In this document: positions 5,617 through 27,983 of the stretch, one piece after another
Layout: every line of letters starts with the position of its first letter
Position numbering within the stretch: position 1 is the stretch's first letter
Source: a candidate division TM6 bacterium GW2011_GWE2_36_25
Lineage (GTDB): Bacteria; Babelota; Babeliae; Babelales; UBA12409
Length of the DNA stretch: 64,000 nt
Assembly (NCBI GenBank): GCA_000991575.1
Contig: LBRU01000001.1
Span: 156,996-220,995, forward strand
Direction: 5' to 3'
Program-made: the position numbers and the translations under genes
Notes under the pieces: generated by a model
The model's input: the letters and a program-made list of their open reading frames with translations, nothing else
Databases searched by the model: none
What the model was told of the DNA's origin: nothing

Positions 5617-5778
5617 GCACTTAAATTTTTTAAAATTAAATAAATAGTAAAAAAAATGGTAGTAACGTTCTTTGAGTAAACCTGCTTTTTCTTGTGCGAT
5701 GGGAGCTCCTCTCTTTTTGCTAAAAATTTATAATCCTTTCAAATTTAAAACAGATTATGTGTGTATTCAATAGATTAT

Positions 5779-5803
5779 AAAAAAAATACAGCCAAAAGGC
5801 TGT
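5779..5803 (-). terminator. Intrinsic terminator after tRNA-fMet
   Basis: CAGCC-aaaa-GGCTG stem followed by a U-tract on the minus strand. Confidence 0.5.
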
Positions 5804-5823
5804 TATTCATAAAAAAGAGTTTT

Positions 5824-5900
5824 TGGTTGCGGGGGTTGGATTCGAACCAACGACCTCTGGGTTATGAGCCCAACGAGCTACCTGACTGCTCCACCCCGCG
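5824..5900 (-). tRNA. tRNA-fMet (CAT), initiator
   Basis: Reverse complement CGCGGGGTGGAGCAGTCAGGTAGCTCGTTGGGCTCATAACCCAGAGGTCGTTGGTTCGAATCCAACCCCCGCAACCA: C1:A72 mismatch, three G:C pairs in the anticodon stem, TTCGAAT T-loop, encoded CCA. Confidence 0.97.
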
Positions 5901-5999
5901 GCTTACATCATATATACTAAGGCTCTTTTGACAACTTGTCAACCGCAATTTGGAATTTTTTATTTTTAAAATAACTTTTTTTCGGCTTTTAAAAATAAA

Positions 6000-7694
6000 T
6001 TAAAATGAAGAGGGAGTTCTTCCTACGTGCAGTTCTTCTTCAATTTCTTGGTCGCGCAGGGAAATAGAATCAGAACTTTTAAGGAATGTGAGCTTGTTTT
6101 TGAACAGTGTTGAAAGTTTTGAAAGAATACCCTCTTTGTCGTCTTTGTGAACATAAAGATCTTCTATTGCGTCATTTGATTTGTGGCAAATTCCTGAAAT
6201 ATGGTAGTCGTGCTCTACGTTTGGCAATTTACTTCGTGCATGAAAAAGTTCTCCAACTCCTCCTGCGAGTTCTACAATTGTGTTATAAGGAGGAATAAAA
6301 ATGACATTGTCATCTTGTACAAAGTCTTTATGATAATCCCGCTTGGGGATTGCAAGTGTGATGCATATATTGCGATTTTTGCTTAAATAAAAAGTTGTAG
6401 CGCCACGGTCTCCGCCAAATCCTGCAAATAAGCTTACACCAAAAGAGAGGGAGTGTGGTCTTTTGTCTTTATAGGGCATGAGAATGTATTTTTTGTCGTC
6501 TAAAGTGAATATTTTTTCAGCGCGGTAAATATTGAAATCGTCATTTTTTTCAGAGGAATATTCTGATTCAAGTGTTGCATTCAGTAAAAGCTTCGCTTGC
6601 TTGGTATTTAAATCTTCAAGAATATGGTAGGGGGTGCGTACATGTATTGATTCGTACGGTTTGCGAACAAACCAGAAAGAACGTGGATCATGGCTTGTTG
6701 GTGTGTATTCAGCTTTTTCTTCAATTGAGTCGAGGCTGTGGCTACTAATGATAATATGGTGTTTTGGGTTTTTTAAATTGTTTGCTATTTTTTTTCTAAT
6801 TAATTTTAGAGTTTTTTTTGCGCCTAAAAAGGGCAGCTGAAGTTTATCCCCGCTCTTATCAAGATAGTTAACAATGAGAGCGCCTAATTCTTTGTTTATT
6901 GCATAATGGCCATCAGCTACATTTTTATGGCGGTTAAGTAATAATGCATCTTTATAAAGTTCTTGATCGTTATAGATTTGAGTTATCGTTTTGAGTGGTC
7001 GAGGAAGACTGGTGGTTAGAGGGCTTCTTCTGTGTGCAGAGCTTCTAAAATCTCCAAGTGCATTCATTCCTCCATGTAACGCTCCCATTTGGGATAAAAT
7101 ATGCAAATGCGGCAAGAGAATTTCGGTATAAATTTTATTAATAAGTTCATATTGTTCTTTTTTATCACCTTCATCGTTATAAAAATTAAAAACCACCGCC
7201 TTGTTAGCAAGTGCAACTTTTATATTTTTGAATTCTTCATCAGACAATATTGTTGTGAGTGGATGAAAGCTTTTTTTCATTTGATCATTAAAATCTTCAA
7301 CGGTGATATCGGTTTCTTCTTTGAGGTGTTTTAAAAAAAACTCAATGATTGATTCAGCCCATAAATCAAGTGTTCTATCGGTATATTTTTCGAGAATAAA
7401 TAGTTCATAAAGAACTGTAGGAACAAACGCAACGCAATATGAATGATTGAATATTTTTAGTTTATATTCTAGAAAGTCTCGTTCTGAGGCATCAATTTCT
7501 TCTGGGTGAACATTATTTAATGGATTTGTACACATTGGAAATTGGTATTTCATCAATGTGGGATAAATCTCTTTTTCATGTTCATCGTGTGTAGGTAATT
7601 TTATTGAATCGCCTACTTTCTTATAAACAAGATATTCAGACTTAATAGTAAAAATTGATAAGCATGCAAAAATAATTGCTAAAATTTTCTTCAT
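6000..7694 (-). CDS. Secreted hypothetical protein (564 aa); C-terminal region tentatively ADP-ribosyltransferase-like
   Basis: Long ORF with RBS and signal peptide MKKILAIIFACLSIFTIKS; IYR...SLSF...GELFH pattern near the C-terminus (tentative). Confidence 0.75.
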   Translation of the reverse strand: MKKILAIIFACLSIFTIKSEYLVYKKVGDSIKLPTHDEHEKEIYPTLMKYQFPMCTNPLNNVHPEEIDASERDFLEYKLKIFNHSYCVAFVPTVLYELFILEKYTDRTLDLWAESIIEFFLKHLKEETDITVEDFNDQMKKSFHPLTTILSDEEFKNIKVALANKAVVFNFYNDEGDKKEQYELINKIYTEILLPHLHILSQMGALHGGMNALGDFRSSAHRRSPLTTSLPRPLKTITQIYNDQELYKDALLLNRHKNVADGHYAINKELGALIVNYLDKSGDKLQLPFLGAKKTLKLIRKKIANNLKNPKHHIIISSHSLDSIEEKAEYTPTSHDPRSFWFVRKPYESIHVRTPYHILEDLNTKQAKLLLNATLESEYSSEKNDDFNIYRAEKIFTLDDKKYILMPYKDKRPHSLSFGVSLFAGFGGDRGATTFYLSKNRNICITLAIPKRDYHKDFVQDDNVIFIPPYNTIVELAGGVGELFHARSKLPNVEHDYHISGICHKSNDAIEDLYVHKDDKEGILSKLSTLFKNKLTFLKSSDSISLRDQEIEEELHVGRTPSSF

Positions 7695-7750: not shown

Positions 7751-9298
7751 TTATTGGGTTTTAAGCTTATCAAGAGTGTTTTCAAGTGATCGATAGGTGA
7801 TCGCTTCCTGTATGTGGGACAATGAAATAGTCTCTTTTTGATCTAAATCAGCGATGGTGCGGCCTATTTTAAGTATTTTGTGGTATCCTCGCATGCTCAG
7901 ACTAAGTCGTTCAAATGCTTGTTTGAGGGCATTTTCGGCTGCATCTTCCAAAATACAATATTTTTCAACCTCATCGGTTGTCATGCTATTGTTAAAGCGA
8001 TGGGGGCCAAATCGTTTTTCTTGTTGTTCAAGAGCTATTTTTATCTGGTTATAGAGTTTTTCAGAAGAATTTTCAGATGGTTGCTTTTTGATATCATCGT
8101 AATCGATAGCTTGTACATGAATTTGTAGATCTATGCGATCAAGTAAGGGTCCGGAAAGTTTTTGTAAGTAGCGATAAATATCATTTTGTTTGCAAGTGCA
8201 AGGACGCTTCTTGTCTCCTAAAAAGCCGCAAGGGCATGGATTGAGGGCTGCAACTAATAATATTGATGCAGGAAAGGTGATTGTCTGATTTGCTCGGGCG
8301 ATTGAAACGTTTTTGTTTTCAAGGGGTTGGCGTAAAACTTCGAGAGTGTGTCGTTTAAATTCAGTTAATTCGTCCAGAAAAAGAATGCCATTATGGGCTA
8401 GGCTGATTTCACCAGGTTGCGGGTATGTTCCGCCGCCGACGAGTCCTGCCTCCGAGATCGTGTGATGGGGTGCTCGAAAAGGCCGTTGATAAATAAGAGC
8501 TTGTTGATTGCTTAATTTGCCCGTTATTGAATAAATTTTACTTGTTTCAAGGATTTCTTTGAATGTGAGTGGTGGCATAATAGTAGGCAGTCTTTGAGCG
8601 AGCATGGTTTTTCCCGCGCCGGGCGAGCCAATAAAGAGAATATTGTGCCTTCCTGCTGCAGCAATTTGTAATGCGCGTTTTGCTTGTTTTTGACCTTTGA
8701 CCTGAGAAAAATCAATGAGATATTGTTGTTTTTGCTGAACTAAATGATGCCATGTTGACGGCGTTGGTATAATGTTTCTTTCCTTGCGCGCATAAGCAAT
8801 AAATTCAGTTAAGGTCTTAATGCCGATGATTTCAATATCAGTAATTAAAGAGGCTTCTTGCGTGTTTTCTTTTGGGAGAACAATACGTTTTTTGTTGAGA
8901 TATTCTTTTGAATCAAAGGTGATTGCAAGGGCTCCCTTGATGGGGCGTACGGTGCCATCGAGAGATAATTCACCAAGAAATAGTGTATCTTCGATAAAAT
9001 TTTTTTCTAAATTAATAAGACCGGTTGCTTGTAAAATACCTACTGCAATAGGGAGATCGAACAGCGTTCCTTCTTTTTTTAAATCTGCAGGAGCAAGATT
9101 AACCGTAATTTTACGATCAGGTAATCGAATGCCGCTATTTTTGAGAGCTGTTGAAATTCGTTGTCGACTCTCTTTTATTGCCATATCAGGTAAGCCAACG
9201 ATGAAAAAATTAATGAGTCCAAGGGCGATATCGACTTCGACCTGCACTTCTTTGGCATCAACGCCAATGGTGGTTGCTGAAAATATTTTTGCATGCAT
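7751..9298 (-). CDS. comM: YifB/ComM family Mg-chelatase-like AAA+ ATPase
   Basis: VGLPD..IKESRQR, ITVNLAPADLKKEG, GSPGAGKT, FRAPHHT, PGEISLAHNGILFLDE, CPCG, LSGPLLDRID. Confidence 0.97.
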   Translation of the reverse strand: MHAKIFSATTIGVDAKEVQVEVDIALGLINFFIVGLPDMAIKESRQRISTALKNSGIRLPDRKITVNLAPADLKKEGTLFDLPIAVGILQATGLINLEKNFIEDTLFLGELSLDGTVRPIKGALAITFDSKEYLNKKRIVLPKENTQEASLITDIEIIGIKTLTEFIAYARKERNIIPTPSTWHHLVQQKQQYLIDFSQVKGQKQAKRALQIAAAGRHNILFIGSPGAGKTMLAQRLPTIMPPLTFKEILETSKIYSITGKLSNQQALIYQRPFRAPHHTISEAGLVGGGTYPQPGEISLAHNGILFLDELTEFKRHTLEVLRQPLENKNVSIARANQTITFPASILLVAALNPCPCGFLGDKKRPCTCKQNDIYRYLQKLSGPLLDRIDLQIHVQAIDYDDIKKQPSENSSEKLYNQIKIALEQQEKRFGPHRFNNSMTTDEVEKYCILEDAAENALKQAFERLSLSMRGYHKILKIGRTIADLDQKETISLSHIQEAITYRSLENTLDKLKTQ

Positions 9299-9464
9299 AA
9301 TTTTTATTTGATCAATTTAAATAAAAAATAAAACGTAATTTTTCTGACTGTGTTTTTATAAGCTTATTCATTTTGATTTATCTGTAAAGTGTTATACAAT
9401 TAATAACGTTTATTGATATCTTGATTTGGCGCTGTTTATATTCGAATTTCTCTGGGGATTTTTT

Positions 9465-12389
9465 ATGAATGCGAATCGTGTGTTTGCTCGATTAATTTGT
9501 TTTTTGTTTTTTTCAACAGCATCTCTTTTTGCTTCACGTGTGATACCGGGGAATGCTTCTTCTGCAACGACAACTTTTAATTTTTCGGTTGGGCCTGTCG
9601 TTTTTCCTACGGGGGCGAATCAAGTATTGGCCACTGTTGTGACCGGTGCTGGCGAGGAGCAAGTGGGAAATACTTTTTCAATTGCTGTCTATTCTGGTGC
9701 CGCTGCGCAATTTATTCCCGTGGGGGTAGCATCGGCAACCTTAAATAATCAAGAAAAACAGAGCAATCCATTAACGGGTCAAAAAATTAAATTTTTATCT
9801 TCGTGTCGTAATCAGAATGATAAACTTTTATATTTTACCGTGATTGATAAAGAAAATATTTCTGCTCCCGTTGCACAGCAAGAACGTTTTAATTATTTTT
9901 TGGTAGAGCTTCCTGATAGAACCAAGCCAACCGAGACAAACGTTGAAGTAGTTCAGAGTGATATTCCTCAAGACGCAGCTGGTGCTCCGGCTGATTATAT
10001 TGCGGGAATGACGTCTTTTCGTGTTCCGGGGGGACAAGATGTTGTTATTGGCGCCGTTACCCCAAATGGAAGTTCAGCCTTTGGTGCGGGGAATAGCGGT
10101 CTTATTGCTGCATATTTAACCAAATCTCAAGGTGGTTATAACTTAAAGATGCAAAATCTTTCTAGTGGCGAAGAGGGAAATCAGGCTATTTCGTTTAATG
10201 GTTCTTTATCAGCATTGAAAGTTGGCAGTGATGCAACAATTTTAAATACGGTCGCTCCTTACATCGATATGCATTGGGATAGTTATTTACAGAGACTGTA
10301 TCTTGCGGTATCCGTAACTGCGGCGGCAGGCGCGACTGATGGTGCTCGATCAATTGTTGTAGGACGATTTGAAAATGGAAAATTAAAATTTCAAAAGATA
10401 ATTCCTGATGCGGTGGTAACTGCGGGAAGCAATACGAATATTATTGCCACAAAAACAGGTGGAACTGCATTTGTCCATAAAGTTCGTACGATGCAAACAA
10501 CGACCCGTTTAAATTATTTAATTGTGAATGGAGGCAATGGTGCCATTGGTGAAACAGCAAATTTAGTTTATGCAATTCCATTGACAAATTTACGTGCGCC
10601 GGGTGATGAAACAAATGCGTGGCAGAAAGATGATAATCACGGCATTGCTGCAAATGTAACGAGTAATCCGGTTGATGATTATAATGAGAAAACAAGGCGG
10701 TTGCGTTTACGTGCATTTAGATCGCCGGCGGAATCAGTTTCTCAATTGTTTACTACAAGTGATCAGGCTGCGCAGGTTGGCGCTGGTCCTGTTCCGTTAA
10801 TTATGTCTGGTAATGCAACCATAAAAGATATGTTCGTTCGCGATGATTCAGTTTATGTATCCATTGCAGCTGATTATGATTATGATGCAGGATCATCGCA
10901 AGCACAGCAGCCTGGTATTTATCATTCGCAAGCAATTTTTGATCACCTGGGAAGAATTGCAGCGTGGACGCCCTGGCAGCGCGTTGGTGGATCAGATGAT
11001 CGGAGTTATGGTGCAATGTTAGATGCCTCAAATGGTGATTTTTGGTATGTAACTGGGGCTGATGATAGTAACGTTAATACGGTAAAAAAAACGCTCTGGG
11101 GTGCAGGGGCTGAGGATGGCCTTTTGGGAGGCACGACAAGCGATGCGCATGTTGGCTTAGTTAGTTTAATAACGCGTCAATTCCCAGAGGTTTGGGGTGG
11201 TGCAAGTGCGATGGCTGAATTTGATGCGAATGCGAATGCTGTAGGACTTCCAAATTCTGGCCTAACTGGCACAACAACAATACTTCTTTCCGGTTATGAA
11301 AAATGCATGTTTGTAGAAACTGGTGATAATAGTGAAGCAACTGGAACGATCAAGCCTTATACTGGTGATTTTTCCACCGACTTAGCATCAAGTACTGATG
11401 GATCATTTCCTTCTGGTTCTGGGCGCACATTTGTCATTTCGGGAGGTTCGTTGGTAGGATTGGGTCCCTTGGTAACTAATACTATTTTTTCCAATTCAAT
11501 CTATTCGTGGATTGCGGTTGGTGGCGCTGGTGGTGCTGCTGTATTGTCTAATGCAAGTGGTCAAGGGTTTTTGCCAAGTGCATTACCAGCCGGTTTTACT
11601 TTTAAGAAAATTGGTAGTTATAAATTTGTGCAAAAAATAGTTGGTGATGGTCAATTTTTGTATATTTTAACCAACAAAACGTTAGATCGCGTAATTATTA
11701 ACACCGCATCATTTGCTACGGGTAGTATTCAAAAAACAACCATTGCTACTGCATCAAGTTTGTGCGGAAATTCAAATGCAAGTTTTTCAGATTTAATTAT
11801 TAGTGACAAATTAGCCCTGTTAGCAACGAGTAAGGGTTTATATCGCATTGCTAATGGCTCGAGCGTGAAGGCTGAATCGCCATACTGGGAAAACGTTGCA
11901 CTTAATGAGAGTGCGGGCCCTCTTTACGCATTATCGTTTTCAGCCTCTTCCACCAATTTAAATAGTGGTCTTGCAAATGGTGGTCAAGTGTATGGTTTGT
12001 CATCATATTGGGGTTTTGATCAAGCACGTATTTATCGTTTTTACATTAATGAAGGTAGCTCAATATCAGATACGTCATTTAGAAATATTAGTGATTTATT
12101 TGTAGAAGGTACTGATACATATTTTGCGAGTTTTGGTCAGATGCGTACAAGTTATACTGATGATGGTTCAGTACGCTTTTCAACAAGGCCGGCAATCTGC
12201 GGAAGAGCGATGGGCCTTTTTGCGATGTCTCCTAATACCATTGTAGGCTCAACGATGTTTTCAAACACTCCTGATAAAAATATCGATGCATTGATGGGTA
12301 CGGTGGGATCATTAGGAAGAGTTGTTCGTTTGAGTTCTTCAGGGGCATGGCTATTGAATGGAAGTTTTGGATTACGAGTTAATGAATAA
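9465..12389 (+). CDS. Large secreted beta-rich hypothetical protein (possible beta-propeller/surface protein)
   Basis: ~975 aa ORF, signal peptide MNANRVFARLICFLFFSTASLFA, rich in Gly/Ser/Ala/Thr. Start moved to ATG 9465. Confidence 0.8.
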   Translation: MNANRVFARLICFLFFSTASLFASRVIPGNASSATTTFNFSVGPVVFPTGANQVLATVVTGAGEEQVGNTFSIAVYSGAAAQFIPVGVASATLNNQEKQSNPLTGQKIKFLSSCRNQNDKLLYFTVIDKENISAPVAQQERFNYFLVELPDRTKPTETNVEVVQSDIPQDAAGAPADYIAGMTSFRVPGGQDVVIGAVTPNGSSAFGAGNSGLIAAYLTKSQGGYNLKMQNLSSGEEGNQAISFNGSLSALKVGSDATILNTVAPYIDMHWDSYLQRLYLAVSVTAAAGATDGARSIVVGRFENGKLKFQKIIPDAVVTAGSNTNIIATKTGGTAFVHKVRTMQTTTRLNYLIVNGGNGAIGETANLVYAIPLTNLRAPGDETNAWQKDDNHGIAANVTSNPVDDYNEKTRRLRLRAFRSPAESVSQLFTTSDQAAQVGAGPVPLIMSGNATIKDMFVRDDSVYVSIAADYDYDAGSSQAQQPGIYHSQAIFDHLGRIAAWTPWQRVGGSDDRSYGAMLDASNGDFWYVTGADDSNVNTVKKTLWGAGAEDGLLGGTTSDAHVGLVSLITRQFPEVWGGASAMAEFDANANAVGLPNSGLTGTTTILLSGYEKCMFVETGDNSEATGTIKPYTGDFSTDLASSTDGSFPSGSGRTFVISGGSLVGLGPLVTNTIFSNSIYSWIAVGGAGGAAVLSNASGQGFLPSALPAGFTFKKIGSYKFVQKIVGDGQFLYILTNKTLDRVIINTASFATGSIQKTTIATASSLCGNSNASFSDLIISDKLALLATSKGLYRIANGSSVKAESPYWENVALNESAGPLYALSFSASSTNLNSGLANGGQVYGLSSYWGFDQARIYRFYINEGSSISDTSFRNISDLFVEGTDTYFASFGQMRTSYTDDGSVRFSTRPAICGRAMGLFAMSPNTIVGSTMFSNTPDKNIDALMGTVGSLGRVVRLSSSGAWLLNGSFGLRVNE

Positions 12390-17924: not shown

Positions 17925-18548
17925 ATGCGTAAACTTCTTTTGAGCGCCCTTTTAATACCGGGCGCACATCTTTCAGCAAAGGCTGATACTGTTTTTAAAG
18001 AGATAAAAGAATTAATGGACAGTTTTAATAAAAGGTTTGAAGTTGTTGAAAAATACATGAATAATTTTCCAGAGTATAAAAGTTTATCTAAAAAAGCTGT
18101 TGAAGAAAAAAAGTCTGACCATGGAAAGGCTGTTGTTAACAATAAAATAGAAATGACAGCGAATAATGAGTTTGTGATCATAAAATTGTATCTTGGTGAA
18201 TTAGATCCCGATAAAATAGTTATTGATGCATTTCCTAATTCCTTGAATGGTATCGTTCCTCTAAGAAATGGTGAAGCAAAGTTTTATGTAAAAGATCGTA
18301 TGTTTGGCGTATCTTTTGAACAGACAAGTAAGGATGAGCAGCAAGTAGAAAATAAGGGGAAGGATTCTTCGGTGCGGGCTACTCATTCATTTGCTTCTTC
18401 AATTGGTTCAAAAATACAATCACTTCCTGCTGAGGTTTGTGATTTGAAAAATATGGTTGCTAATTATGAAGATGGTGTTCTTGAATTAAAACTTCCTCGT
18501 GTTCCACAAAAGAAAGGAACTAAAATTAATGTTGCAAAAAGTGCATAA
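17925..18548 (+). CDS. Hsp20/alpha-crystallin family small heat-shock protein with N-terminal signal peptide
   Basis: C-terminal ANYEDGVLELKLPR and KINV (I-X-I/V) motif; hydrophobic N-terminus. Confidence 0.8.
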   Translation: MRKLLLSALLIPGAHLSAKADTVFKEIKELMDSFNKRFEVVEKYMNNFPEYKSLSKKAVEEKKSDHGKAVVNNKIEMTANNEFVIIKLYLGELDPDKIVIDAFPNSLNGIVPLRNGEAKFYVKDRMFGVSFEQTSKDEQQVENKGKDSSVRATHSFASSIGSKIQSLPAEVCDLKNMVANYEDGVLELKLPRVPQKKGTKINVAKSA

Positions 18549-18565
18549 CTTTTCACAAGAAATAG

Positions 18566-18596
18566 AAAATGGCCCGGTTAAAACTGGGCCATTTTT
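18566..18596 (+). terminator. Intrinsic terminator after the Hsp20 gene
   Basis: AAAATGGCCC...GGGCCATTTTT inverted repeat with T-tract. Confidence 0.75.
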
Positions 18597-18615
18597 GTAT
18601 CCTTCATTAACGAAG

Positions 18616-19746
18616 GTGCATAATCATACCTGTTGGTTAGAGATAGATAAATGTCGATTTTTTTCAAATGCATATTGGCTTAAAAAGCTTGTTGGATTAA
18701 ATCGTAATATTGCGGTTGTTTTAAAGTCAAATGCATATGGCCATGGATTACTTGAGGCTGGTTCATTGTGTGAGGCTTCTCCTTTTATTAATTACATGGC
18801 TGTTTTTTTGTTAAGTGATGCTATTCGTTTAAGAAATAAGGGAATAAGAAAGCCTATTGTTGTTTTGGGTGGATATGATCTTTCCCTTGTCGAGGGAATT
18901 AACCATAATATTGATTTAGTTGTATATGATTGGCACATCGCTGAAGATATTTCTACATTGGCACGATCGCTCAAAAAAAAGGTTAATGTTCAAATAAAGG
19001 TTGATACGGGATTGGTTCGTTTGGGATTTTTACCTGAAGAAACTATTGCTGTTATTGATTATCTTGTACAAAATCCTTTTATTTCTGTTACTGGTATGTA
19101 TACGCATTTTGCTGAGTCTGATGCGCAAGACACTTCTTTTACTTTTGAACAGATTAGTCGTATGCAATGGGTTTGCGAGAAAGTTAAAGAGCGAAAAATC
19201 ACAATTCCGTTTATTCATTTAGCTAATACAGCTGCAACGTTGCGTTTTCCTGAGGCGCGAGGAACGATGGTTCGTTGCGGTGGTGCGTTGTATGGATCAT
19301 ATAAAGATGAGCGTTTTTATGAGCATGCTAAAACTATTTTACCCGGGTTTTCTCTTAAAACATGTTTATCATTAAAATCGCGCATCATGATGATTCGTGA
19401 AGTTTCTGTTGGAATTCCGATTGGTTATGCGCGGACATTTAAGACAACCAAGCCGATGCGTTTAGCTATCGTTGGTGTTGGTTATTACGATGGGTATGAC
19501 CGTCGTTTATCAAATACCGGTAAGATGGTCATTCATAATCATGTTGTTCCCATTATAGGGCGCGTTGGGATGAATATGACAACGGTGGATATTACCGATA
19601 TTCCGCAGATTAAAAAAGGGGATGAGGTGTTAGTTATTGGGGATCACGATGGTATTCGTCTTAAGGACGTAGCCCGTCAGATGGGCGTCATTGAATATGA
19701 AGTAATGCCGCCATTAAATCCATCACTGCCGCGTATTATTATTTAA
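18616..19746 (+). CDS. alr: Alanine racemase (copy 1)
   Basis: WLEID, AVVLKSNAYGHG (PLP lysine), KVDTGLVRLG, THFA, IGY catalytic Tyr, GYYDGY, GRVGMN. GTG start at 18616 preferred because the track start (18499) lies upstream of a terminator. Confidence 0.95.
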   Translation: MHNHTCWLEIDKCRFFSNAYWLKKLVGLNRNIAVVLKSNAYGHGLLEAGSLCEASPFINYMAVFLLSDAIRLRNKGIRKPIVVLGGYDLSLVEGINHNIDLVVYDWHIAEDISTLARSLKKKVNVQIKVDTGLVRLGFLPEETIAVIDYLVQNPFISVTGMYTHFAESDAQDTSFTFEQISRMQWVCEKVKERKITIPFIHLANTAATLRFPEARGTMVRCGGALYGSYKDERFYEHAKTILPGFSLKTCLSLKSRIMMIREVSVGIPIGYARTFKTTKPMRLAIVGVGYYDGYDRRLSNTGKMVIHNHVVPIIGRVGMNMTTVDITDIPQIKKGDEVLVIGDHDGIRLKDVARQMGVIEYEVMPPLNPSLPRIII

Positions 19747-19747
19747 G

Positions 19748-20845
19748 ATGTCACAAGATTTTTATTCTTGGATTACGCTCAATAAAGCGCAATTCTTTTT
19801 TAATGCTGATTATATTAAAAAACAGATTGGTGTGCAGGTAAAGCTGGGTGCTGTTATTAAATCAAATGCTTATGGGCATGGATTATTGCATATTGCACAG
19901 TTGTGCCAAGAATCGCGTTCTATTGATGTGCTTATTGTATTCAGCTTACATGATGCACTTTTATTGCGCGAAAAAGGCATTTTGAAACCACTTATTTTAA
20001 TGGGTATTCTTGATGCGCCATTGCAAGAAGTTTCAGAGAAAAACATTGATCTTGTCGTGCATAATCGTTTTTTTGCAGAGCGTCTGATAATATATGCGCA
20101 GCAACACCAACAGAAATTTCGTGTTCATATTAAAGTTGATACTGGTATGAATCGTCTCGGTTTTTCTCCTGATGAATTGCCGAATATTATTTATTTATTA
20201 AAACAGAGTTTATATATCTCAATTGTTGGGGTGTGTTCGCATTTTGCTGAATCGGAGAATGTGGATACTGCTTTTACATTATTGCAATTACAACGTTTTG
20301 ATTGTTTGTTTTCTCAATTAAATGATCTTGAATATATTCATATTTCCAATACCGCTGGCACCCTAAATTTTTTGAATGCGCATCACTCGTTAGTTCGTTG
20401 TGGAGGAGGATTATATGGATTGGATGTGCCTGATAAAAAACTTTCGTTAAAACCCATTTTATCATTAAAAACAAAGATTATTGAAATACGGGAGGTGAGA
20501 CCCCAATGTTCAGTTGGTTATAATAGAACGTTTGTTGCGAATTCTATGCGTAAAATAGCAATTGTTCCCCTCGGTTATTATGATGGTCTTGATCGTAGAC
20601 TTTCTAATAGAGGTTTTATGAATATTAAAGGAAAAGTGGTGCCAATTATTGGGCGTGTGGCAATGAATTTAACAACGCTCGATGTAACTGATATTCCACA
20701 GGTGAATATACATGATGAGGTTCTTGTTTTGGGCGATGGTGATTTAGTTACTCCTGCTCAGTATGCTCATTTGTTGAATACTATTGAATACGAGATAACG
20801 GCCAGACTGAATCCTTTAATTAAGCGAATTTTAATTGAAAGATGA
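19748..20845 (+). CDS. alr: Alanine racemase (copy 2)
   Basis: GAVIKSNAYGHG, HIKVDTGMNRLG, SHFA, VGYNRTF, GYYDGL, GRVAMN. Confidence 0.95.
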   Translation: MSQDFYSWITLNKAQFFFNADYIKKQIGVQVKLGAVIKSNAYGHGLLHIAQLCQESRSIDVLIVFSLHDALLLREKGILKPLILMGILDAPLQEVSEKNIDLVVHNRFFAERLIIYAQQHQQKFRVHIKVDTGMNRLGFSPDELPNIIYLLKQSLYISIVGVCSHFAESENVDTAFTLLQLQRFDCLFSQLNDLEYIHISNTAGTLNFLNAHHSLVRCGGGLYGLDVPDKKLSLKPILSLKTKIIEIREVRPQCSVGYNRTFVANSMRKIAIVPLGYYDGLDRRLSNRGFMNIKGKVVPIIGRVAMNLTTLDVTDIPQVNIHDEVLVLGDGDLVTPAQYAHLLNTIEYEITARLNPLIKRILIER

Positions 20846-21661: not shown

Positions 21662-22213
21662 TTATTTTTTAATTGCAAAATTAACAAATTTTTTATCTCG
21701 CCCTGTTTCTATAAAACCGAGATCTTTATAAATTTTTTGAGCTGGAGTATTGTCAGTTCTCGTTGTTAAATAGACTTCAGTGCATCCTTGATTGAATAAA
21801 TCTTTGAGCGCATAACGAATTAATCTTTTTCCATATCCTTTACCACGGAAATTTTTACTGACCGATAAAAACTGAATGCGTCCACGATGGTAACCATCTT
21901 TATGATAGGTAATAAATCCTGCAAATTTTCCGTTTTCAAGAATAGTTTTAATAGTGAGCTTCCCCAAAAATTGTGGTCTTTTGTCAGGTGATTTGGTATT
22001 AAGCATGTGATCAATATCAAAATTCATTCCTTCCTCAAAAAGCCAATATTCATCAACTTTAAGGTTGTTTTTTATTCCGGCATAATCGCGGCTCGGATTA
22101 TAATTATCAACGGTTACGCGAGATGAGCATTTTGCAAGTGTAACCGTAATAAGAATAGTAATAGCTAATATTAATAATCCTGATAGAAGATACGTTCTTT
22201 TTTTGGGGGTCAT
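21662..22213 (-). CDS. GNAT acetyltransferase with N-terminal membrane anchor
   Basis: FLSVSKNFRGKGYG motif A, NTPAQKIYKDLGF motif B; hydrophobic N-terminal helix. Confidence 0.92.
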   Translation of the reverse strand: MTPKKRTYLLSGLLILAITILITVTLAKCSSRVTVDNYNPSRDYAGIKNNLKVDEYWLFEEGMNFDIDHMLNTKSPDKRPQFLGKLTIKTILENGKFAGFITYHKDGYHRGRIQFLSVSKNFRGKGYGKRLIRYALKDLFNQGCTEVYLTTRTDNTPAQKIYKDLGFIETGRDKKFVNFAIKK

Positions 22214-22358
22214 AAAAATATCCTTAAGCGAGTATTTTTAATTAATCATTTATCAGAATTTTAAGCGTAAGAACGTTTTTTTGCAACTTTAAAGATAAAT
22301 CCTTGCATTTATTTTTTTTATTTTTGTAAGGTCAAAGTGAATAGAGGGATAGGGGGAA

Positions 22359-23108
22359 ATGGACCGCAGCACGGTGTCGCTTGTGGTTTTTGGAGCGTTT
22401 TTTATGTCTGGACAAATGAGTAAAGATTTGATCATAATAGGGCATCGTGGTGCGCATGGGCTTGAAGTAGAAAATACGTTAAAGTCATTCGAAAAAGCTA
22501 TTAAGTTGGGCGTTGATATGATTGAGCTTGATGCTCGCCAATGTAAATCAGGCCATTTGGTGGTTTTTCATGATGAAACGGTCGATCGTTTAACTGACGG
22601 TTCGGGTCATATCGCTGACATGACGTTGGCGCAATTAAGAAAACTAAATGTTCAAAAAGACCATAAAATTTCTACATTGGATGAAGTTCTTCAATCAATT
22701 AATAAACGATGCAGAGTTGACATTGAGCTTAAGGGTGTGGGGACGGGAAAGTTGGTGGCGTTATTATTACGTCGTTATTTAAAACAAGGGTGGTTGCCGG
22801 AGACTTTTTTGGTAACATCCTTTAATTTTTATGAATTGAATGATTTTCATGAAGCGGTGCCACAGATCCCCATTGGTATAATTTTTGATCGTTTACCCGT
22901 TGATTATACTTTATTAGCTCAAGAACTTGGCGCACAAGCAATCATCATGCAGCATGCACTTATCGCACCGTCATTAATGGAACGGGCAGCCGCTCGTAAT
23001 TTACGCGTGTATGCGTGGACTGTTAATAAGGTTATGTCTGTAAAGAATTTAAGGAAGCTTGGCGTTCAGGGCATTGTAACTGATTATCCAAATAAAATGA
23101 TAAAATGA
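22359..23108 (+). CDS. Glycerophosphodiester phosphodiesterase (GDPD)
   Basis: IIGHRGA, ENT, IELD, VVFHD, IELK, YAWTVN, GIVTDYP. The true start may be a downstream ATG. Confidence 0.95.
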   Translation: MDRSTVSLVVFGAFFMSGQMSKDLIIIGHRGAHGLEVENTLKSFEKAIKLGVDMIELDARQCKSGHLVVFHDETVDRLTDGSGHIADMTLAQLRKLNVQKDHKISTLDEVLQSINKRCRVDIELKGVGTGKLVALLLRRYLKQGWLPETFLVTSFNFYELNDFHEAVPQIPIGIIFDRLPVDYTLLAQELGAQAIIMQHALIAPSLMERAAARNLRVYAWTVNKVMSVKNLRKLGVQGIVTDYPNKMIK

Positions 23109-23196
23109 TATTTAAAATCTAATTTTTTTGTAGCTTTTTATTTTATTCTGTATTTACATAAATTGAATACGTTTCTAAAAAATAAAATGAGGAAGG

Positions 23197-24261
23197 GTGT
23201 TGAAGATGCGTATTAGTTTATTTAAGAAAAATTTTTATTTTGATGATGTTGTTGTATTAATAGCAATGTTTTTTGTTGGGATTTTAATTTTCTTTTATAG
23301 TAATAGATTAATTACGACTGATCCCATGCCTGAAAATGTTTTTATCGTTCCTCAAGAATTTTCAAAAGTATCACGGACATTTTCTACCATTAATACCGGA
23401 TTTATTCTTACAGGAATTCCCCTTGTTAATCCGAATGAGAATGAGTTTGTTGTAGAAGGTCTTTTGTGGTTTGAGTATGACCCGTCGCGTATTTCAAGTG
23501 AAAGTATTAATAAATTTTCTTTTGTAAATGGAACGATAGAAGCAAAATCAGAACCGAAAGTTGAGGCGCGAGGAAATTTGCTTTTGGTTAAGTATCTCAT
23601 AAAATTACGTTTTAGTAGCAGGCTTGATTACGAGATGTTCCCATTTGATGATCATCGGATCTATTTTATTTTGACAAATCTTTTTTTAAATTCAGGTGAA
23701 TCGGTCTATACTATTGCTTCAACTGACTTTATTGTTCCTAAAAATCTTTTGATTCCAGGATGGAGTTGCAAAGAATATAATGCGATGTTTGGAAAGACGC
23801 CAATTGTTGAAAAATTGAGTGGTCTTGAAGAAAGTTACCCACAGGTGATTTTTATTTTGAAGTTACAAAAAAATAGTTTGGGAATTATCTTTACGATTAT
23901 TATTCCTTTGTTGATTATGTTTTATATTTCCTTAATTTCGATCATGCCAATTTATGAAGTAAGTGGCGTGAAGCAAAAAAGATTTAATTGGGAGTATTAC
24001 AGTATCGCCATAGGTAATTTTGCTGCGGTTTTAGCATATCGCTATGTTATTCAAACGGTATCGCCGCAGGTTTCCTATCTTACAGTGGCTGATTTTTTAT
24101 ATATATATATTCTTTCTACTTCGGTCATTGCTCTTGTTGTTCCTTTTATTACCATGCAAATTCCAGTTAAAATTGCACGTTTTTTATCTTTTTTTCTGAT
24201 CATTTTTTTAAGCGTAGTATTGATCGCATTAATTTATATTTTACTTTTCGTGAGGGTCTAA
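23197..24261 (+). CDS. Prokaryotic pentameric ligand-gated ion channel (GLIC/ELIC-like)
   Basis: beta-sandwich ECD with F.V.G.LWF.Y, LDYEMFPFDDH (Pro-loop), PGW, then four TM helices with IIPLL in M1 and VSYLTVAD at the start of M3. Confidence 0.85.
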   Translation: MLKMRISLFKKNFYFDDVVVLIAMFFVGILIFFYSNRLITTDPMPENVFIVPQEFSKVSRTFSTINTGFILTGIPLVNPNENEFVVEGLLWFEYDPSRISSESINKFSFVNGTIEAKSEPKVEARGNLLLVKYLIKLRFSSRLDYEMFPFDDHRIYFILTNLFLNSGESVYTIASTDFIVPKNLLIPGWSCKEYNAMFGKTPIVEKLSGLEESYPQVIFILKLQKNSLGIIFTIIIPLLIMFYISLISIMPIYEVSGVKQKRFNWEYYSIAIGNFAAVLAYRYVIQTVSPQVSYLTVADFLYIYILSTSVIALVVPFITMQIPVKIARFLSFFLIIFLSVVLIALIYILLFVRV

Positions 24262-24274
24262 AAGGGAGTTGCAC

Positions 24275-26521
24275 ATGAATAGAAAAAATTTATATTATCT
24301 CATTGGTTTTATTTTGGGCTCCTTTGTTGAAAGTCGATCGACTTTTTCAACCGTAGATGACTTATTGTTATTCACGCGAACTCATCAGGAAGAATTGAAA
24401 CCAGACAGTTTGGCTTATTCAGATCCGTTGAGCCCTACCTTTTATTCTTCTTATGCACGTTCGTTAAAATTAAAAAATAGATTTTTTAATTTTATGCGTA
24501 GTTTGATTGGCATCGGCATTCGAGTTGATTGGTCTGATCAATATTTTGAAGCGATCATGAAAAAAGCATGTAAAGAGCAGGCTGAATTTAAAAATATGAA
24601 CGGAGAGATAGTTGGTCGTCCTGAACATAGATATGTAATTTGGGGTGATTTGTGTGGTTCCGTGCATTCATTTGTGAGATGTTTAGATGAATTAAAGAGA
24701 AAAAATTTTATTGATCAAAATTTACGTCTTATGCCAGATTATTATATGATTTTTACCGGTGATGTTATTGGTTCTGCTGCGTATAATTTAGAGATACTTT
24801 CAATAATTTTTCAATTAATTGTTCTTAATCCAGGAAGAATTATTTACTTGAAGGGGCGTCAAGAGAGACAGTTTAATTGGCATAATTTTAATACCTATCG
24901 TGAACTTGAAATAAAGGTGCCGAAACATCGAATTTCTTCATTTGTTTCAAATTTAGATCTGTTTTTTGAAAATCTTTTGGGGACGCTTAAGATTTCTTAC
25001 ATTGACCAACATCAGCAGAAGCGAGATGTTTTATTTTCTTATGAAGGATTTGAAAAGTTGAAGAGTGCGCCTACTAATGAAATTTTAATTCAAGTAAAAT
25101 CTAACAAAGGAATTTTTGCTTACACTTTAACGAATGGGCTTTCACTCCGTTGCCCAGAATGTGGCATTACAACGTGGACCATTTTTTCTGCTCCCACGTA
25201 TGTCTCCCAAGAATTTTATAAATTTTATAACGATTCATTTTGTATTTTGGAAATGGCTTCTAATGGTTATGATTGGCTTATAAGTCACTTTTATCGTCGA
25301 TTTGATGGTAAAGGTGAATTTGATGCGGAATTTTTTAATTTTTTAACAGGTCAAAAATTTGAATCAGAAAAAGTTGCAAAGGAATTTCTTAAAGAGCAGA
25401 AAAAATATCTTCCTGTGGTACGAACAGCTTCCTTGGATCATGGCAATCAATTTATTTTCGGATCTTATTTGGATTTAAGTGGCTCTATTAAAAATATTGG
25501 AGAAGATTTAAAGCGTGGCTTGTCGTTAAGATTTAATAAGGAAAACATTGAATATGGTGGTATTAATGGGAGATTTTTAAGATTAGTTGCGCTTGATGAT
25601 CGCTATAATCAAACTCTTACCTTAGATGCGCTTATAAAATTAAAGAATGACTTTAAAACTAATTTATTGGTAAATGGATTAGGAACGCGGCCATTACAAA
25701 CAGCGATGGATTTTGCCAGTAAAGAAAACATGAAAATATTATTTCCTTATACGGGTGCTTCAATTGGGCGCCAGGAGAACTTGAAAAATATTGTTAATCT
25801 GCGTGCTTCTTATGCTGATGAAGCAGAAGCATTAGTTGACTATGGTGTTAATACGTTAAGAAAAAATCGTTTTGTTATCTTTTATCAAGATGATGCATAT
25901 GGACGTGCGGGGCGAGATCCTGCTAAAAAGTTGCTCGTTGAAAAATATAAGATAACCGATATTTTAGAAGTTTCGCATTCCGTTGGTTCATTGCAGCTTG
26001 ATAAAGCAGCTGAAGAAATTATTAAATTTGGTCCATCTGCTATTTTGTTCTTTTCAATTGAAGTAGTGTCAGCCGAACTGATTGAAAAGATTGGAATAAA
26101 ATCATTAATGAATGTTGCTCTTTTGGCGGTTAGTTTTATGTCTCATAGTTTTACAGAGTTCTTAAAAACAAGGGGATTGTCATCTGTTCTTTCGCAAGTC
26201 TTACCAAATTCCCATGGTGATACTCCTATTGCCCAAGAATGTCGTGATACATTAAAAATGTACATGCCGAGCGTGGATATTAATGCGGATCTTTTTGAAG
26301 GGTATGTTTCTGCAAGTTTGCTTGTTGAAGCTATTAAAATTATAGGTTCTGACGTTACGAGCGAAAAACTTCTTCGTTATTTTGAATCACTTAAAAATGT
26401 AAACTTTAAGGGGTTGAAACTCAATTTTAATTCAGAAACGCGTCAGTTAATGCATAATGTTTGGCTTGATGTAGGAAAGAAAGATTGGATTATTTTTGAT
26501 ATGAGCAAAAATAATCAATAA
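24275..26521 (+). CDS. Exported fusion: degenerate PPP/calcineurin-like phosphoesterase domain plus C-terminal type-1 (LivJ-like) periplasmic binding domain
   Basis: WGDLCGS, FTGDVIG, YLKGRQE; then GINGRFLRLVALDDRYN, NLRASYADEA, IFYQDDAYG, FEGYVSA. AGGGAG RBS precedes ATG 24275. Confidence 0.8.
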   Translation: MNRKNLYYLIGFILGSFVESRSTFSTVDDLLLFTRTHQEELKPDSLAYSDPLSPTFYSSYARSLKLKNRFFNFMRSLIGIGIRVDWSDQYFEAIMKKACKEQAEFKNMNGEIVGRPEHRYVIWGDLCGSVHSFVRCLDELKRKNFIDQNLRLMPDYYMIFTGDVIGSAAYNLEILSIIFQLIVLNPGRIIYLKGRQERQFNWHNFNTYRELEIKVPKHRISSFVSNLDLFFENLLGTLKISYIDQHQQKRDVLFSYEGFEKLKSAPTNEILIQVKSNKGIFAYTLTNGLSLRCPECGITTWTIFSAPTYVSQEFYKFYNDSFCILEMASNGYDWLISHFYRRFDGKGEFDAEFFNFLTGQKFESEKVAKEFLKEQKKYLPVVRTASLDHGNQFIFGSYLDLSGSIKNIGEDLKRGLSLRFNKENIEYGGINGRFLRLVALDDRYNQTLTLDALIKLKNDFKTNLLVNGLGTRPLQTAMDFASKENMKILFPYTGASIGRQENLKNIVNLRASYADEAEALVDYGVNTLRKNRFVIFYQDDAYGRAGRDPAKKLLVEKYKITDILEVSHSVGSLQLDKAAEEIIKFGPSAILFFSIEVVSAELIEKIGIKSLMNVALLAVSFMSHSFTEFLKTRGLSSVLSQVLPNSHGDTPIAQECRDTLKMYMPSVDINADLFEGYVSASLLVEAIKIIGSDVTSEKLLRYFESLKNVNFKGLKLNFNSETRQLMHNVWLDVGKKDWIIFDMSKNNQ

Positions 26522-26633
26522 ATTGCTCATTAAGTTTTTAATAACAAACGTACTTAATGCGATGGTTATTATTTTTAACTCTTTATTTTAATTTTAAAAT
26601 TTTTATATCGTGAGAAAAAAGGGGAGGGGTGTG

Positions 26634-27236
26634 ATGAAGTTTTTGTATAGTTTTCTTTTTGTTTTTTATTTTCTTTATTCAATGGACAACTCTCCAGCAA
26701 GTGCTCTTTTTGATTTTATTGAGTTACGGGATGAATTACAGAAAATTTTTGGATCGGCTTGGGAAAGTTTATTTTTAAAGCATTGTGCTGAGGGTAAGAC
26801 AATATGTGACTTATTGGGAATTTATGATAAAGAAGGCCGATTGGGTGATAAATTAGATCTCCCTGATGATGCTTTGCTTTCTTATGATGCAGCTTTTTAT
26901 CAGTTTGTTTTTACGATGAATGAATTAATATTATGTAAGTTGCCTTATGGGAATATTTATGTTTTTTTAAATTGCTTGCCACGCATTAAGCGTTGTGGGG
27001 AGGTTCTTTTCTTAAATTATAATAAATTGAGGGGCTTAAAATCTTTAGATTTAAAAAGTTTACATGCGGGACACAGACTTTTATCGTGTTATATAAAGTT
27101 CTTTTTGCAAAGTGTTCGAGATTATGCTTTGGATTTATCGCAGGAATCATTTGCGCGTGCACAGTTAGCGCGTGATGGTACAAAATGGCAAGATCCATTT
27201 GAAAAGTTGTTACAATTAATAGATGAAGAAGATTGA
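26634..27236 (+). CDS. Secreted hypothetical protein
   Basis: GGGAGG RBS; signal peptide MKFLYSFLFVFYFLYS-MD. Confidence 0.7.
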   Translation: MKFLYSFLFVFYFLYSMDNSPASALFDFIELRDELQKIFGSAWESLFLKHCAEGKTICDLLGIYDKEGRLGDKLDLPDDALLSYDAAFYQFVFTMNELILCKLPYGNIYVFLNCLPRIKRCGEVLFLNYNKLRGLKSLDLKSLHAGHRLLSCYIKFFLQSVRDYALDLSQESFARAQLARDGTKWQDPFEKLLQLIDEED

Positions 27237-27245
27237 GGTTACTGT

Positions 27246-27983
27246 TTAGTTTTTATAGGTTATTGACTTGAGGAGCAGCCCTCTTGCTGGTGCACAAGGG
27301 AGTGTGTGTTCAGGATTACATGTGTCCTTTATTTTTTTTAAATAATCGATGGTTAATTTTGGGCGTGAAGCAATTTCAAGAGATGCGCCGACAATGCGTC
27401 TAATCATATAACGAAGAAAACCTGGCCCTTTAAATATTATTTTATAAGTTACTGCATCAATTTTTTGTAGGGTAATGCTATTAATTGTTCGTATTGTATC
27501 TTTCATGTCGTCGCCGGTACAGAAACTGCGGAAATCATGGGTTCCGATAAAGATAGCCAAGACTTCTTCTAATTTTTTTATGTTAAGCGGCCAACGATAG
27601 AACCATTGATGACGAGCTACAAACGGGGAGGGCCGTTGAAGAGCGATTGTGTATTCGTAAGTTTTTTCAAGGATATGATGATGGGGATTATAGTTATCTG
27701 GGGCTGACGCGAGTTCTTTGATCAAGATTGACTCAGGCAGCCTATTATTCCATGCATTTTTGAGAGTTTCTGTTGTAATGGAAAGATCAGTAGAAAAGGT
27801 AGCGACTTGTCCTTCTGCGTGAACTCCTGCATCTGTTCGAGATGCTGCGAATAACGAAATTTTTTTATGGAAAACTTTGAAAAAAACTTTTTCTAAGGTT
27901 TCTGCTACGGTAGGACCGTTAGTCTGCTTTTGCCAGCCCTGATAATTGGTACCATCGTATGCGACGATAATTTTATATTGCAT
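27246..27983 (-). CDS. truA: tRNA pseudouridine(38-40) synthase TruA
   Basis: AYDGTNYQGWQ, SRTDAGVHAEGQ, GTHDFRSF, GFLRYMIRRIVG, APARGL. Confidence 0.98.
   Translation of the reverse strand: MQYKIIVAYDGTNYQGWQKQTNGPTVAETLEKVFFKVFHKKISLFAASRTDAGVHAEGQVATFSTDLSITTETLKNAWNNRLPESILIKELASAPDNYNPHHHILEKTYEYTIALQRPSPFVARHQWFYRWPLNIKKLEEVLAIFIGTHDFRSFCTGDDMKDTIRTINSITLQKIDAVTYKIIFKGPGFLRYMIRRIVGASLEIASRPKLTIDYLKKIKDTCNPEHTLPCAPARGLLLKSITYKN

Follow-up and report, generated by a model that had tools for sequence, protein, structure and literature searches.

What is a protein that joins a phosphatase fold to a periplasmic solute-binding fold doing directly behind an ion channel gene? [quoted passage not shown] A first-pass annotation had read the two genes as a two-part system of soluble sensor plus channel, in which the dead phosphoesterase acts as a second sensor, of a ligand or a phospho-peptide. 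Here, we find the pairing of sensor and channel strongly supported by conserved adjacency, by duplication of the pair and by natural single-chain fusions, and we propose that the window gene probably encodes an exported accessory sensor subunit of the upstream pLGIC, both being expressed from one operon. The sensing role suggested for the head found no support, and an adaptor role appears to fit it better.

Association of the channel with its partner gene

In no fewer than 17 loci, which have unrelated flanks and lie mostly in metagenome-assembled genomes (MAGs) of Dependentiae/Babeliales, a channel homologue adjoins one to four pseudo-phosphatase-PBP genes. Starting from homologues of the partner protein, a channel homologue of ~345-357 aa was found directly upstream in loci L001, L003, L004 and L005, which carry one, two, four and two partner genes behind it, respectively; the L003 channel is 27% identical to that of the window (E 8e-34). 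An upstream fragment at the cut edge of L002 reads as channel M3-M4, and in one Joint Genome Institute (JGI) contig the channel position is taken by a 342-aa gene whose identity is unverified. Starting from homologues of the channel, a partner gene was adjacent in L006, where there are two such cassettes, and also in L007, in L008 and on another JGI contig. A contig scan with a single-protein query returned no match, whereas a profile of five channel-family members (A1), run against species representatives (one genome per species), returned 17 loci in 13 genomes, mostly labeled Dependentiae, TM6 or Babeliales, with some Pseudomonadota, Myxococcota and Opitutaceae. According to our own hidden Markov models (HMMs), the channel has a partner gene beside it in 12 of these 17 loci (10 of the 13 genomes); one of the 17 stops at a contig edge. 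Channel and partner are separated by anything from a 34-nt overlap to 39 nt in the relatives, and the flanking genes vary between loci.

The pair also duplicates as a pair. Cassettes are doubled in this way in L006, L011 and L017, and the channel tree and the partner tree contain the same four major clades. In both trees, the second channel of L006 and L017 and its downstream partners form matching clades, and the whole cassette would therefore have been copied together ahead of the divergence of those species.

In some proteins the link is covalent. Searching 1.84 billion cluster representatives with a profile of the head gave 571 clusters at E ≤ 1e-30, and among the best 150 of these every protein has one head, followed by one to seven PBP domains. 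A single PBP follows the head in 84 cases, two in 23, three in 7, four in 4, and five, six or seven in one case each; a head only, probably a fragment, was seen in 33, and channel, head and PBP stand on one chain in three (P0038, P0164 and P0147). Giant members include P0025 (3020 aa), with one head and 7 tandem PBPs, and P0040 (2821 aa), with one head and 6. With P0169 and P0170, which were added by further search, and a second copy in L027, at least six diverged single-ORF (open reading frame) fusions of channel, pseudo-phosphatase and PBP are known, that of P0038 being uninterrupted on its contig. P0170 comes from an NCBI MAG labeled Alphaproteobacteria bacterium 41-28 (L027), whose two fused genes (3935-7270 and 8001-11336 of that locus) lie ~700 bp apart with a small opposite-strand gene between them; their presence outside Dependentiae suggests spread between symbiont lineages.

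In the fused forms the signal peptide of the head is missing and the channel helix M4 takes its place, with a conserved F-x-T-L...P-E...D-P segment 20-40 aa after M4 (seen in P0038, P0164, P0147 and P0170). By established topology, the C-terminus of M4 is periplasmic in all known pLGICs, and fusion therefore puts head and PBP where the exported stand-alone protein would be. All of the fused channels have the Pro-loop variant FPxN[AD]H in common, a pattern that points to a single ancient fusion, kept ever since. We rejected read-through or assembly artifact as a source of the fusions, given six diverged single ORFs, two of them in one NCBI MAG, and no signal peptide between M4 and head. Taken at the level of sequence, co-inheritance, co-duplication and fusion thus show that channel and partner are associated.

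At the window locus itself, the channel stop codon TAA (24259-24261) is followed after 13 nt by the ATG at 24275, the same spacing that the first-pass annotation had reported. The gap was read directly from the sequence (...GTC TAA AAGGGAG TTGCAC ATG) and holds a Shine-Dalgarno motif, AAGGGAG (24262..24268, +), 6 nt ahead of the ATG. The ORF as listed, 24269..26521 (+), opens at a TTG; we favor the ATG at 24275, which gives a complete coding sequence (24275..26521, +) of 748 aa closed by a TAA stop. The 13-nt spacing suggests that channel and partner form one operon. A scan for promoters and terminators gave a result no better than shuffled sequence, and an Rfam scan of 22000-27500 at E ≤ 1 returned no riboswitch or other RNA hinting at a ligand.

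The upstream gene occupies 23206..24261 (+). Its ORF is also open from a listed GTG at 23197; the ATG at 23206, 9 nt downstream, is the likelier start because a ribosome binding site (AGGAAGG) precedes it. The predicted product has the Pro-loop FPFDDHR (23638-23658, +), an M1 helix with IIPLL, the M2-M3 segment LAYRYVIQTVSPQVSY, a short M3-M4 loop and four transmembrane helices. The channel matched no Pfam family at E ≤ 0.1 (neither Neur_chan_LBD nor Neur_chan_memb) and, as a single sequence, no PDB entry, and NCBIfam had no match for any of the three proteins tried, which included the channel and the window protein. Profile A1 matched GLIC, the proton-gated channel of Gloeobacter, with E 3.3e-11 over a stretch that extends from the Pro-loop to M3 (query 140-321, chain 101-269), bearing out the earlier call of a channel at this position. 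Nearly all of the 34 aligned channel-family members conserve the Pro-loop as FP[FLV]D[DN]H[RK] together with the M1 proline, and LAYRFVIExxSPxVGY is conserved across M2-M3. Judged by the profile match and these motifs, the upstream gene is a genuine, very divergent pLGIC homologue, of a clade too divergent for the curated Pfam and NCBIfam models; pentameric assembly and ligand-gated conduction are predicted for it.

GLIC is the closest solved relative of the window channel and has in common with it the Pro-loop FP-x-D, the M1 proline, the M2-M3 Pro, four transmembrane helices and the lack of a large intracellular domain. In the register given by alignment with GLIC alone, the pore of the family is lined by S2', G6', A/T9', A13' and F/Y16', with a conserved Arg at 15', where GLIC has Ile at 9' and Ser at 6'. 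Position 9' is Ala in the window channel and Thr or Ala across the family, so the usual hydrophobic Leu/Ile gate at 9' would be absent. The window channel differs from GLIC further in its long hydrophobic N-terminal segment and its dedicated partner gene.

A degenerate phosphatase head before a Venus-flytrap domain

The C-terminal half of the partner was readily assigned. A Peripla_BP_6 domain (LivJ/LIVBP-like Venus flytrap) spans 25460..26467 (+; aa 396-731) and covers profile positions 5-335 of 343 at E 5.3e-26, scoring 92.5 bits against a cutoff of 31.7. Single-sequence PDB searches of this half matched the LivJ-like structures 4kv7 (E 5.6e-25) and 3lop (E 2.5e-14). In the full-length AlphaFold model (mean predicted local distance difference test [pLDDT] 80, predicted template modeling score [pTM] 0.73), the PBP part has pLDDT mostly >90. 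Foldseek with this model matched PBPs only, led by 4kv7 (E 7e-24; template modeling [TM] score 0.85, normalized to the target), with the cytoplasmic amide sensor AmiC at TM 0.80 and 3lop, 4m88, LivK, LivJ and urea- and aromatic-acid-binding proteins among the further matches. On the evidence of sequence profile and model, the C-terminal half is an intact two-lobe LivJ-type Venus flytrap, in agreement with its original call as a type-1 PBP.

The N-terminal half needed profiles and models. A Pfam hmmscan of the window protein (E ≤ 0.1) returned Peripla_BP_6 alone; PF00149 was absent, and no family matched the N-terminal half. For aa 90-226, the single-sequence PDB search gave only marginal matches to rdgC and PP2A (E ~0.08). 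Profile A2, built from 15 N-terminal halves of the family, matched PP2A first (E 4.7e-7) and then BSU1, PP5, rdgC, PP1 and calcineurin, with motifs II and III and the FDxLPL helix inside the aligned stretch. Among the relatives obtained by protein search, which are 25-88% identical to the window protein, several carry PF00149 (Metallophos) ahead of the PBP domain, including paralogues P0007-P0009. An AlphaFold model of aa 1-400 (pLDDT 69, pTM 0.74) is confident in its core, which comprises aa 88-260 and 320-375, and Foldseek with this N-domain model returned PP5 (E 2.7e-7), rdgC, PPZ1, PP2A, calcineurin and PP1 at E ~3e-7, with superpositions of ~3 Å root mean square deviation over ~185 columns. 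Profile A2 and Foldseek together place a calcineurin-like PPP-family fold, homologous to the beta-alpha-beta-alpha-beta metallophosphoesterase core and catalytically degenerate, at aa ~88-375 (24536..25399, +).

The degraded motifs lie exactly where the first-pass annotation had put them, in the columns that read GDLHG, GDxIDRS and GNHE in paralogues and GDYV[D/N]RG and GNHE in PP2A. Motif I is GDLCG (24644-24658, +; aa 124-128), with Cys replacing the His of GDxHG; motif II is GDVIGSA (24758-24778, +; aa 162-168), which keeps the first Asp of GDxVDRG and has lost D95 and R96; and motif III is GRQE (24854-24865, +; aa 194-197) in place of GNHE. In PP1 numbering, the substitutions in the window head are H66 to C, D95 to G, R96 to S, N124 to R and H125 to Q; only two Asp (the GD of motif I and the GD of motif II) are retained, as in the clade to which it belongs. 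Further along, FSYEG (25034-25048, +) stands at the HGG-type His position and VKSNKG (25094-25111, +) at the RxH-type His position, against ISH[SFY]G and IKTE[ED]W in better-preserved members; by this pattern alignment, made within the family only, the window head is apparently without the later His ligands H173 and H248. The R221-bearing segment is ~50 residues shorter, and SAPTY (25187-25201, +), read from the translation, is a retained counterpart of SAPNY.

Such loss is the rule in the family. When 189 non-identical heads were aligned to the family HMM, D64 was kept in 66%, H66 in 39%, D92 in 49%, N124 in 34% and H125 in 68%, and the structural Glu of GNHE in 100%. All five N-terminal catalytic residues (D64, H66, D92, N124 and H125) are intact in only 14 heads, among them those at L006 5788-7977 and L017 3458-5683, in which GDxHG, GDxxxR and GNHE are kept. 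Several of these 14 retain the HGG-type His and have Glu at the last His position, and this better-preserved minority may bind metal or stay active. Since the old active-site residues vary freely over the 189 heads, no conserved pocket remains at that site. This evidence lends no support to the proposal that the dead phosphoesterase is a second sensor, of a ligand or a phospho-peptide; sensing of a phospho-ligand is unlikely because the residues vary between paralogues and the phosphate-binding Arg is gone.

Degeneration of the active site has not meant decay of the domain. Measured against the 88%-identical orthologue in L001, the PPP core has a ratio of nonsynonymous to synonymous substitution rates (dN/dS) of 0.091, the PBP domain one of 0.094, the channel one of 0.051 and the neighboring GDPD gene one of 0.099. 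The value for the core is as low as that for the PBP domain, and on this measure the dead phosphatase domain is a pseudo-enzyme domain that purifying selection maintains.

Ahead of the head, the signal-peptide-like N-terminus MNRKNLYYLIGFILGSFVESRST (24275..24343, +) was judged by eye; it has the n-h-c layout MNRKN-LYYLIGFILGSFV-ESRS with an uncharged run of 13 residues, consistent with the signal peptide first proposed. In 104 of the 149 relatives with complete N-termini the uncharged run is 8-15 residues long, and in 32 it reaches at least 16 residues and resembles a membrane anchor. There follows a conserved membrane-proximal segment (24344..24442, +), F-x-T-[LV]...Y-x(4)-P/E-E...D-P-x(4)-F in alignment A2, in which E39 is invariant. 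It has low pLDDT in the monomer model and is a candidate channel-contact element.

Sensing, uptake or scaffolding

How might such a pair work? We propose that the Venus-flytrap domain would bind a small solute in the periplasm. This solute would probably be a metabolite, amino-acid-like or an organic acid, that these symbiont-type bacteria receive from their eukaryotic host. The dead phosphatase would act as a fixed membrane-proximal adaptor that docks the sensor onto the extracellular domain of the channel, and closure of the clamshell would be relayed to channel gating or modulation. An adaptor that docks in this way is probably the role of the head: it fits better because there is one head per chain whatever the number of PBPs, and because the head comes directly after M4 in the fusions. 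Extra paralogues (one to four genes per channel) and arrays of two to seven PBPs would widen or tune the range of ligands, and the resulting ion flux would inform the cell about its chemical environment.

Several observations weigh against this proposal. The channels of L016, L021, L024 and L025, 4 of the 19 copies, have no adjacent partner gene; two of these four are the most divergent channels. Matching trees are also expected from the vertical descent of two neighboring genes. A comparison of paralogues within a locus does not pick out either domain as the constant one, with mean identities of 46% for the N-domain and 47% for the PBP; only in the recent duplicates of L018 is the N-domain the more conserved. 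Finally, the full-length extracellular domain of the channel may bind ligand itself, in which case the partner would be only a modulator.

The most serious alternatives concern uptake. The PBP could hand its solute to the pLGIC-like pentamer, with the pore providing facilitated, energy-independent import across the inner membrane and no signaling. PBPs usually serve transporters, and no transporter was seen in the annotated loci; the pore-lining positions (S2', G6', A/T9', A13') are small or polar, although a hydrophobic Leu/Ile at 9' is otherwise near-universal; with its PBP arrays and multiple paralogues, the family looks like multi-substrate transporters; the unpaired channel of L016 adjoins an OPT peptide transporter; and import of this kind would suit energy-poor intracellular symbionts. 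We nonetheless think it rather unlikely, as we know of no pLGIC that conducts amino-acid-sized nutrients physiologically, the pore register comes solely from alignment to GLIC, the aromatic at 16' could still form a narrow gate, and the pseudo-phosphatase head is given no specific role. A related and distinctly unlikely proposal makes the partners obligatory gating subunits of a small polar pore that passes the captured solute, a channel-type, energy-independent and binding-protein-dependent uptake. If true, it would add a new uptake class beside the ATP-binding cassette (ABC), TRAP and TTT systems, and host-dependent bacteria would import host metabolites through it.

It is also quite improbable, in our judgment, that the partner merely stabilizes, localizes or tethers the pentamer, its PBP fold being an interaction module that senses no ligand. 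Linkage and fusion prove association and not sensing, and inactive calcineurin-like folds are known as scaffolds, for example in Vps29 and the B-subunits of DNA polymerases. However, the PBP domain scores far above the Pfam cutoff and keeps its two-lobe fold, and scaffolding hardly explains why PBPs are multiplied to as many as 7 in an array and the paralogues to as many as four, an outcome expected if ligand specificities diversify. It is very improbable that the window protein lies beside the channel by chance and serves, as an ordinary substrate-binding protein, a Liv-type ABC importer encoded elsewhere. One relative is named [quoted passage not shown] in its source database, but adjacency to the channel holds across unrelated contexts and the pair duplicates as a unit. 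As the first-pass annotation had noted, no ABC permease or ATPase (LivHMGF type) lies among the ORFs near the window gene, and none was found in the 11 loci from relatives with precomputed Pfam annotation, a result whose scope is the locus. In the loci covered, orthologues accompany the channel and in no case an ABC permease; an importer subunit is largely refuted by the six proteins in which channel and partner are covalently joined. Activity of the window N-terminal domain as a periplasmic phosphatase through substitute residues is extremely unlikely: the 14 heads with all five catalytic residues might still bind metal and are the argument in its favor, and the substitutions in the window head, which leave only two Asp, and its shortened R221 segment speak against it. 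Our preferred reading remains that of an accessory sensor subunit that would dock on the channel.

Neighboring genes and comparison with described systems

Other genes near the cassette were considered. Directly downstream of the partner gene, a 208-aa ORF (26610-27236) has a signal-like N-terminus and no family match; because it is present in L001 and absent from the syntenic JGI contig, it is not counted as part of the cassette. Both this ORF and the upstream GDPD gene were rejected as parts of the system, being syntenic in the closest relatives only. Two tandem alanine racemase paralogues (18499-19746 and 19748-20845), 1 nt apart, are found also in L001 and, as one copy, in the close JGI contig. 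A GNAT acetyltransferase gene (21662-22213, -) is syntenic in close relatives, and its product has a hydrophobic N-terminal segment and may be exported or membrane-anchored. Thiol-redox genes recur near the cassette or channel, which may be coincidence: two thioredoxins follow the partner genes in L003 (12550-13454), an AhpC/TSA gene precedes the partner gene in L007 (4169-4720), and two AhpC genes flank the unpaired channel of L025 (77-688 and 1781-2317). In L016 (9894-11531), the OPT-family oligopeptide transporter gene comes directly behind the unpaired channel homologue.

The principle of a pLGIC working with a PBP is already known. Tasneem, Iyer, Jakobsson and Aravind described bacterial pLGICs with N-terminally fused PBP-I domains or operonic PBP-II genes in 2004 and proposed that channel and PBP cooperate in sensing small solutes (PMC549065). 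Later pLGIC surveys put accessory domains aside (PMC4795631), and DeCLIC is the only accessory-domain pLGIC characterized so far (PMC12664993). The suggestion that the window genes form no described system is thus only partly correct. A PBP fold fused to, or in a conserved neighborhood with, a prokaryotic pLGIC is common to the 2004 systems and to ours. In contrast to them, the PBP-I domain here is downstream of the channel or after M4, always behind a PPP pseudo-phosphatase; it is often multiplied, with one to seven PBPs per protein and one to four genes per channel; and the channel clade escapes Pfam. Full-text literature searches found nothing on pLGICs together with Dependentiae, metallophosphoesterases or solute-binding proteins, and nothing on pseudophosphatases with PBPs or on Dependentiae with branched-chain amino-acid binding proteins. 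What appears to be new, then, is a pseudo-phosphatase as the proposed adaptor, a partner placed downstream of the channel or C-terminal to it, the presence of PBPs in arrays, and a channel clade that escapes both Pfam and NCBIfam.

DeCLIC offers a parallel in that an extra periplasmic module regulates a bacterial pLGIC, although its module is a same-chain N-terminal pair of calcium-binding lobes, with neither a PBP nor a phosphatase fold (PMC12664993). The amino-terminal domain of ionotropic glutamate (iGluR/NMDA) receptors, mGluR, GABA-B and the ANF receptor likewise use a PBP-I fold as a sensing or allosteric module on a channel or receptor, and several members of our family also match PF01094 (ANF_receptor). 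These animal Venus-flytrap modules sit on tetrameric glutamate-receptor channels or G protein-coupled receptors, not on a pentameric Cys/Pro-loop channel, and have no pseudo-phosphatase adaptor. In AmiC-AmiR, MBP-Tar, LuxP-LuxQ and ChvE-VirA, the PBP is a detachable sensor that acts by protein contact and is not part of a transporter; the partners are anti-terminators, chemoreceptors or kinases, not ion channels. The head, in turn, has the fold and motif order of PP2A, PP5, rdgC, PP1 and calcineurin, including a SAPNY-like S-[SAC]-P-[TI]. It differs from these eukaryote-type PPPs in being exported and fused to a PBP, in a family mostly without metal ligands and with a shortened HGG-RxH segment. 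Vps29 is a calcineurin-like domain that was similarly retained after the loss of its catalytic residues.

The control of pentameric ligand-gated channels by accessory domains has been studied structurally in a single bacterial example, DeCLIC. The family described here is a natural system that exists in both forms, with channel and Venus-flytrap sensor as separate proteins or as a single chain, and the single-chain proteins (such as P0038 and P0170) are ready-made constructs for cryo-electron microscopy and electrophysiology. It brings the ligand-sensing fold of glutamate receptors, mGluR and GABA-B together with a pentameric channel, and shows clearly how a PPP-family phosphatase fold can be retained by purifying selection, on the dN/dS evidence, in a non-catalytic role. 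The family further brings to light a large pLGIC clade, mostly of Dependentiae-type symbionts, that Pfam and NCBIfam models do not detect and that domain-architecture surveys would therefore have missed.

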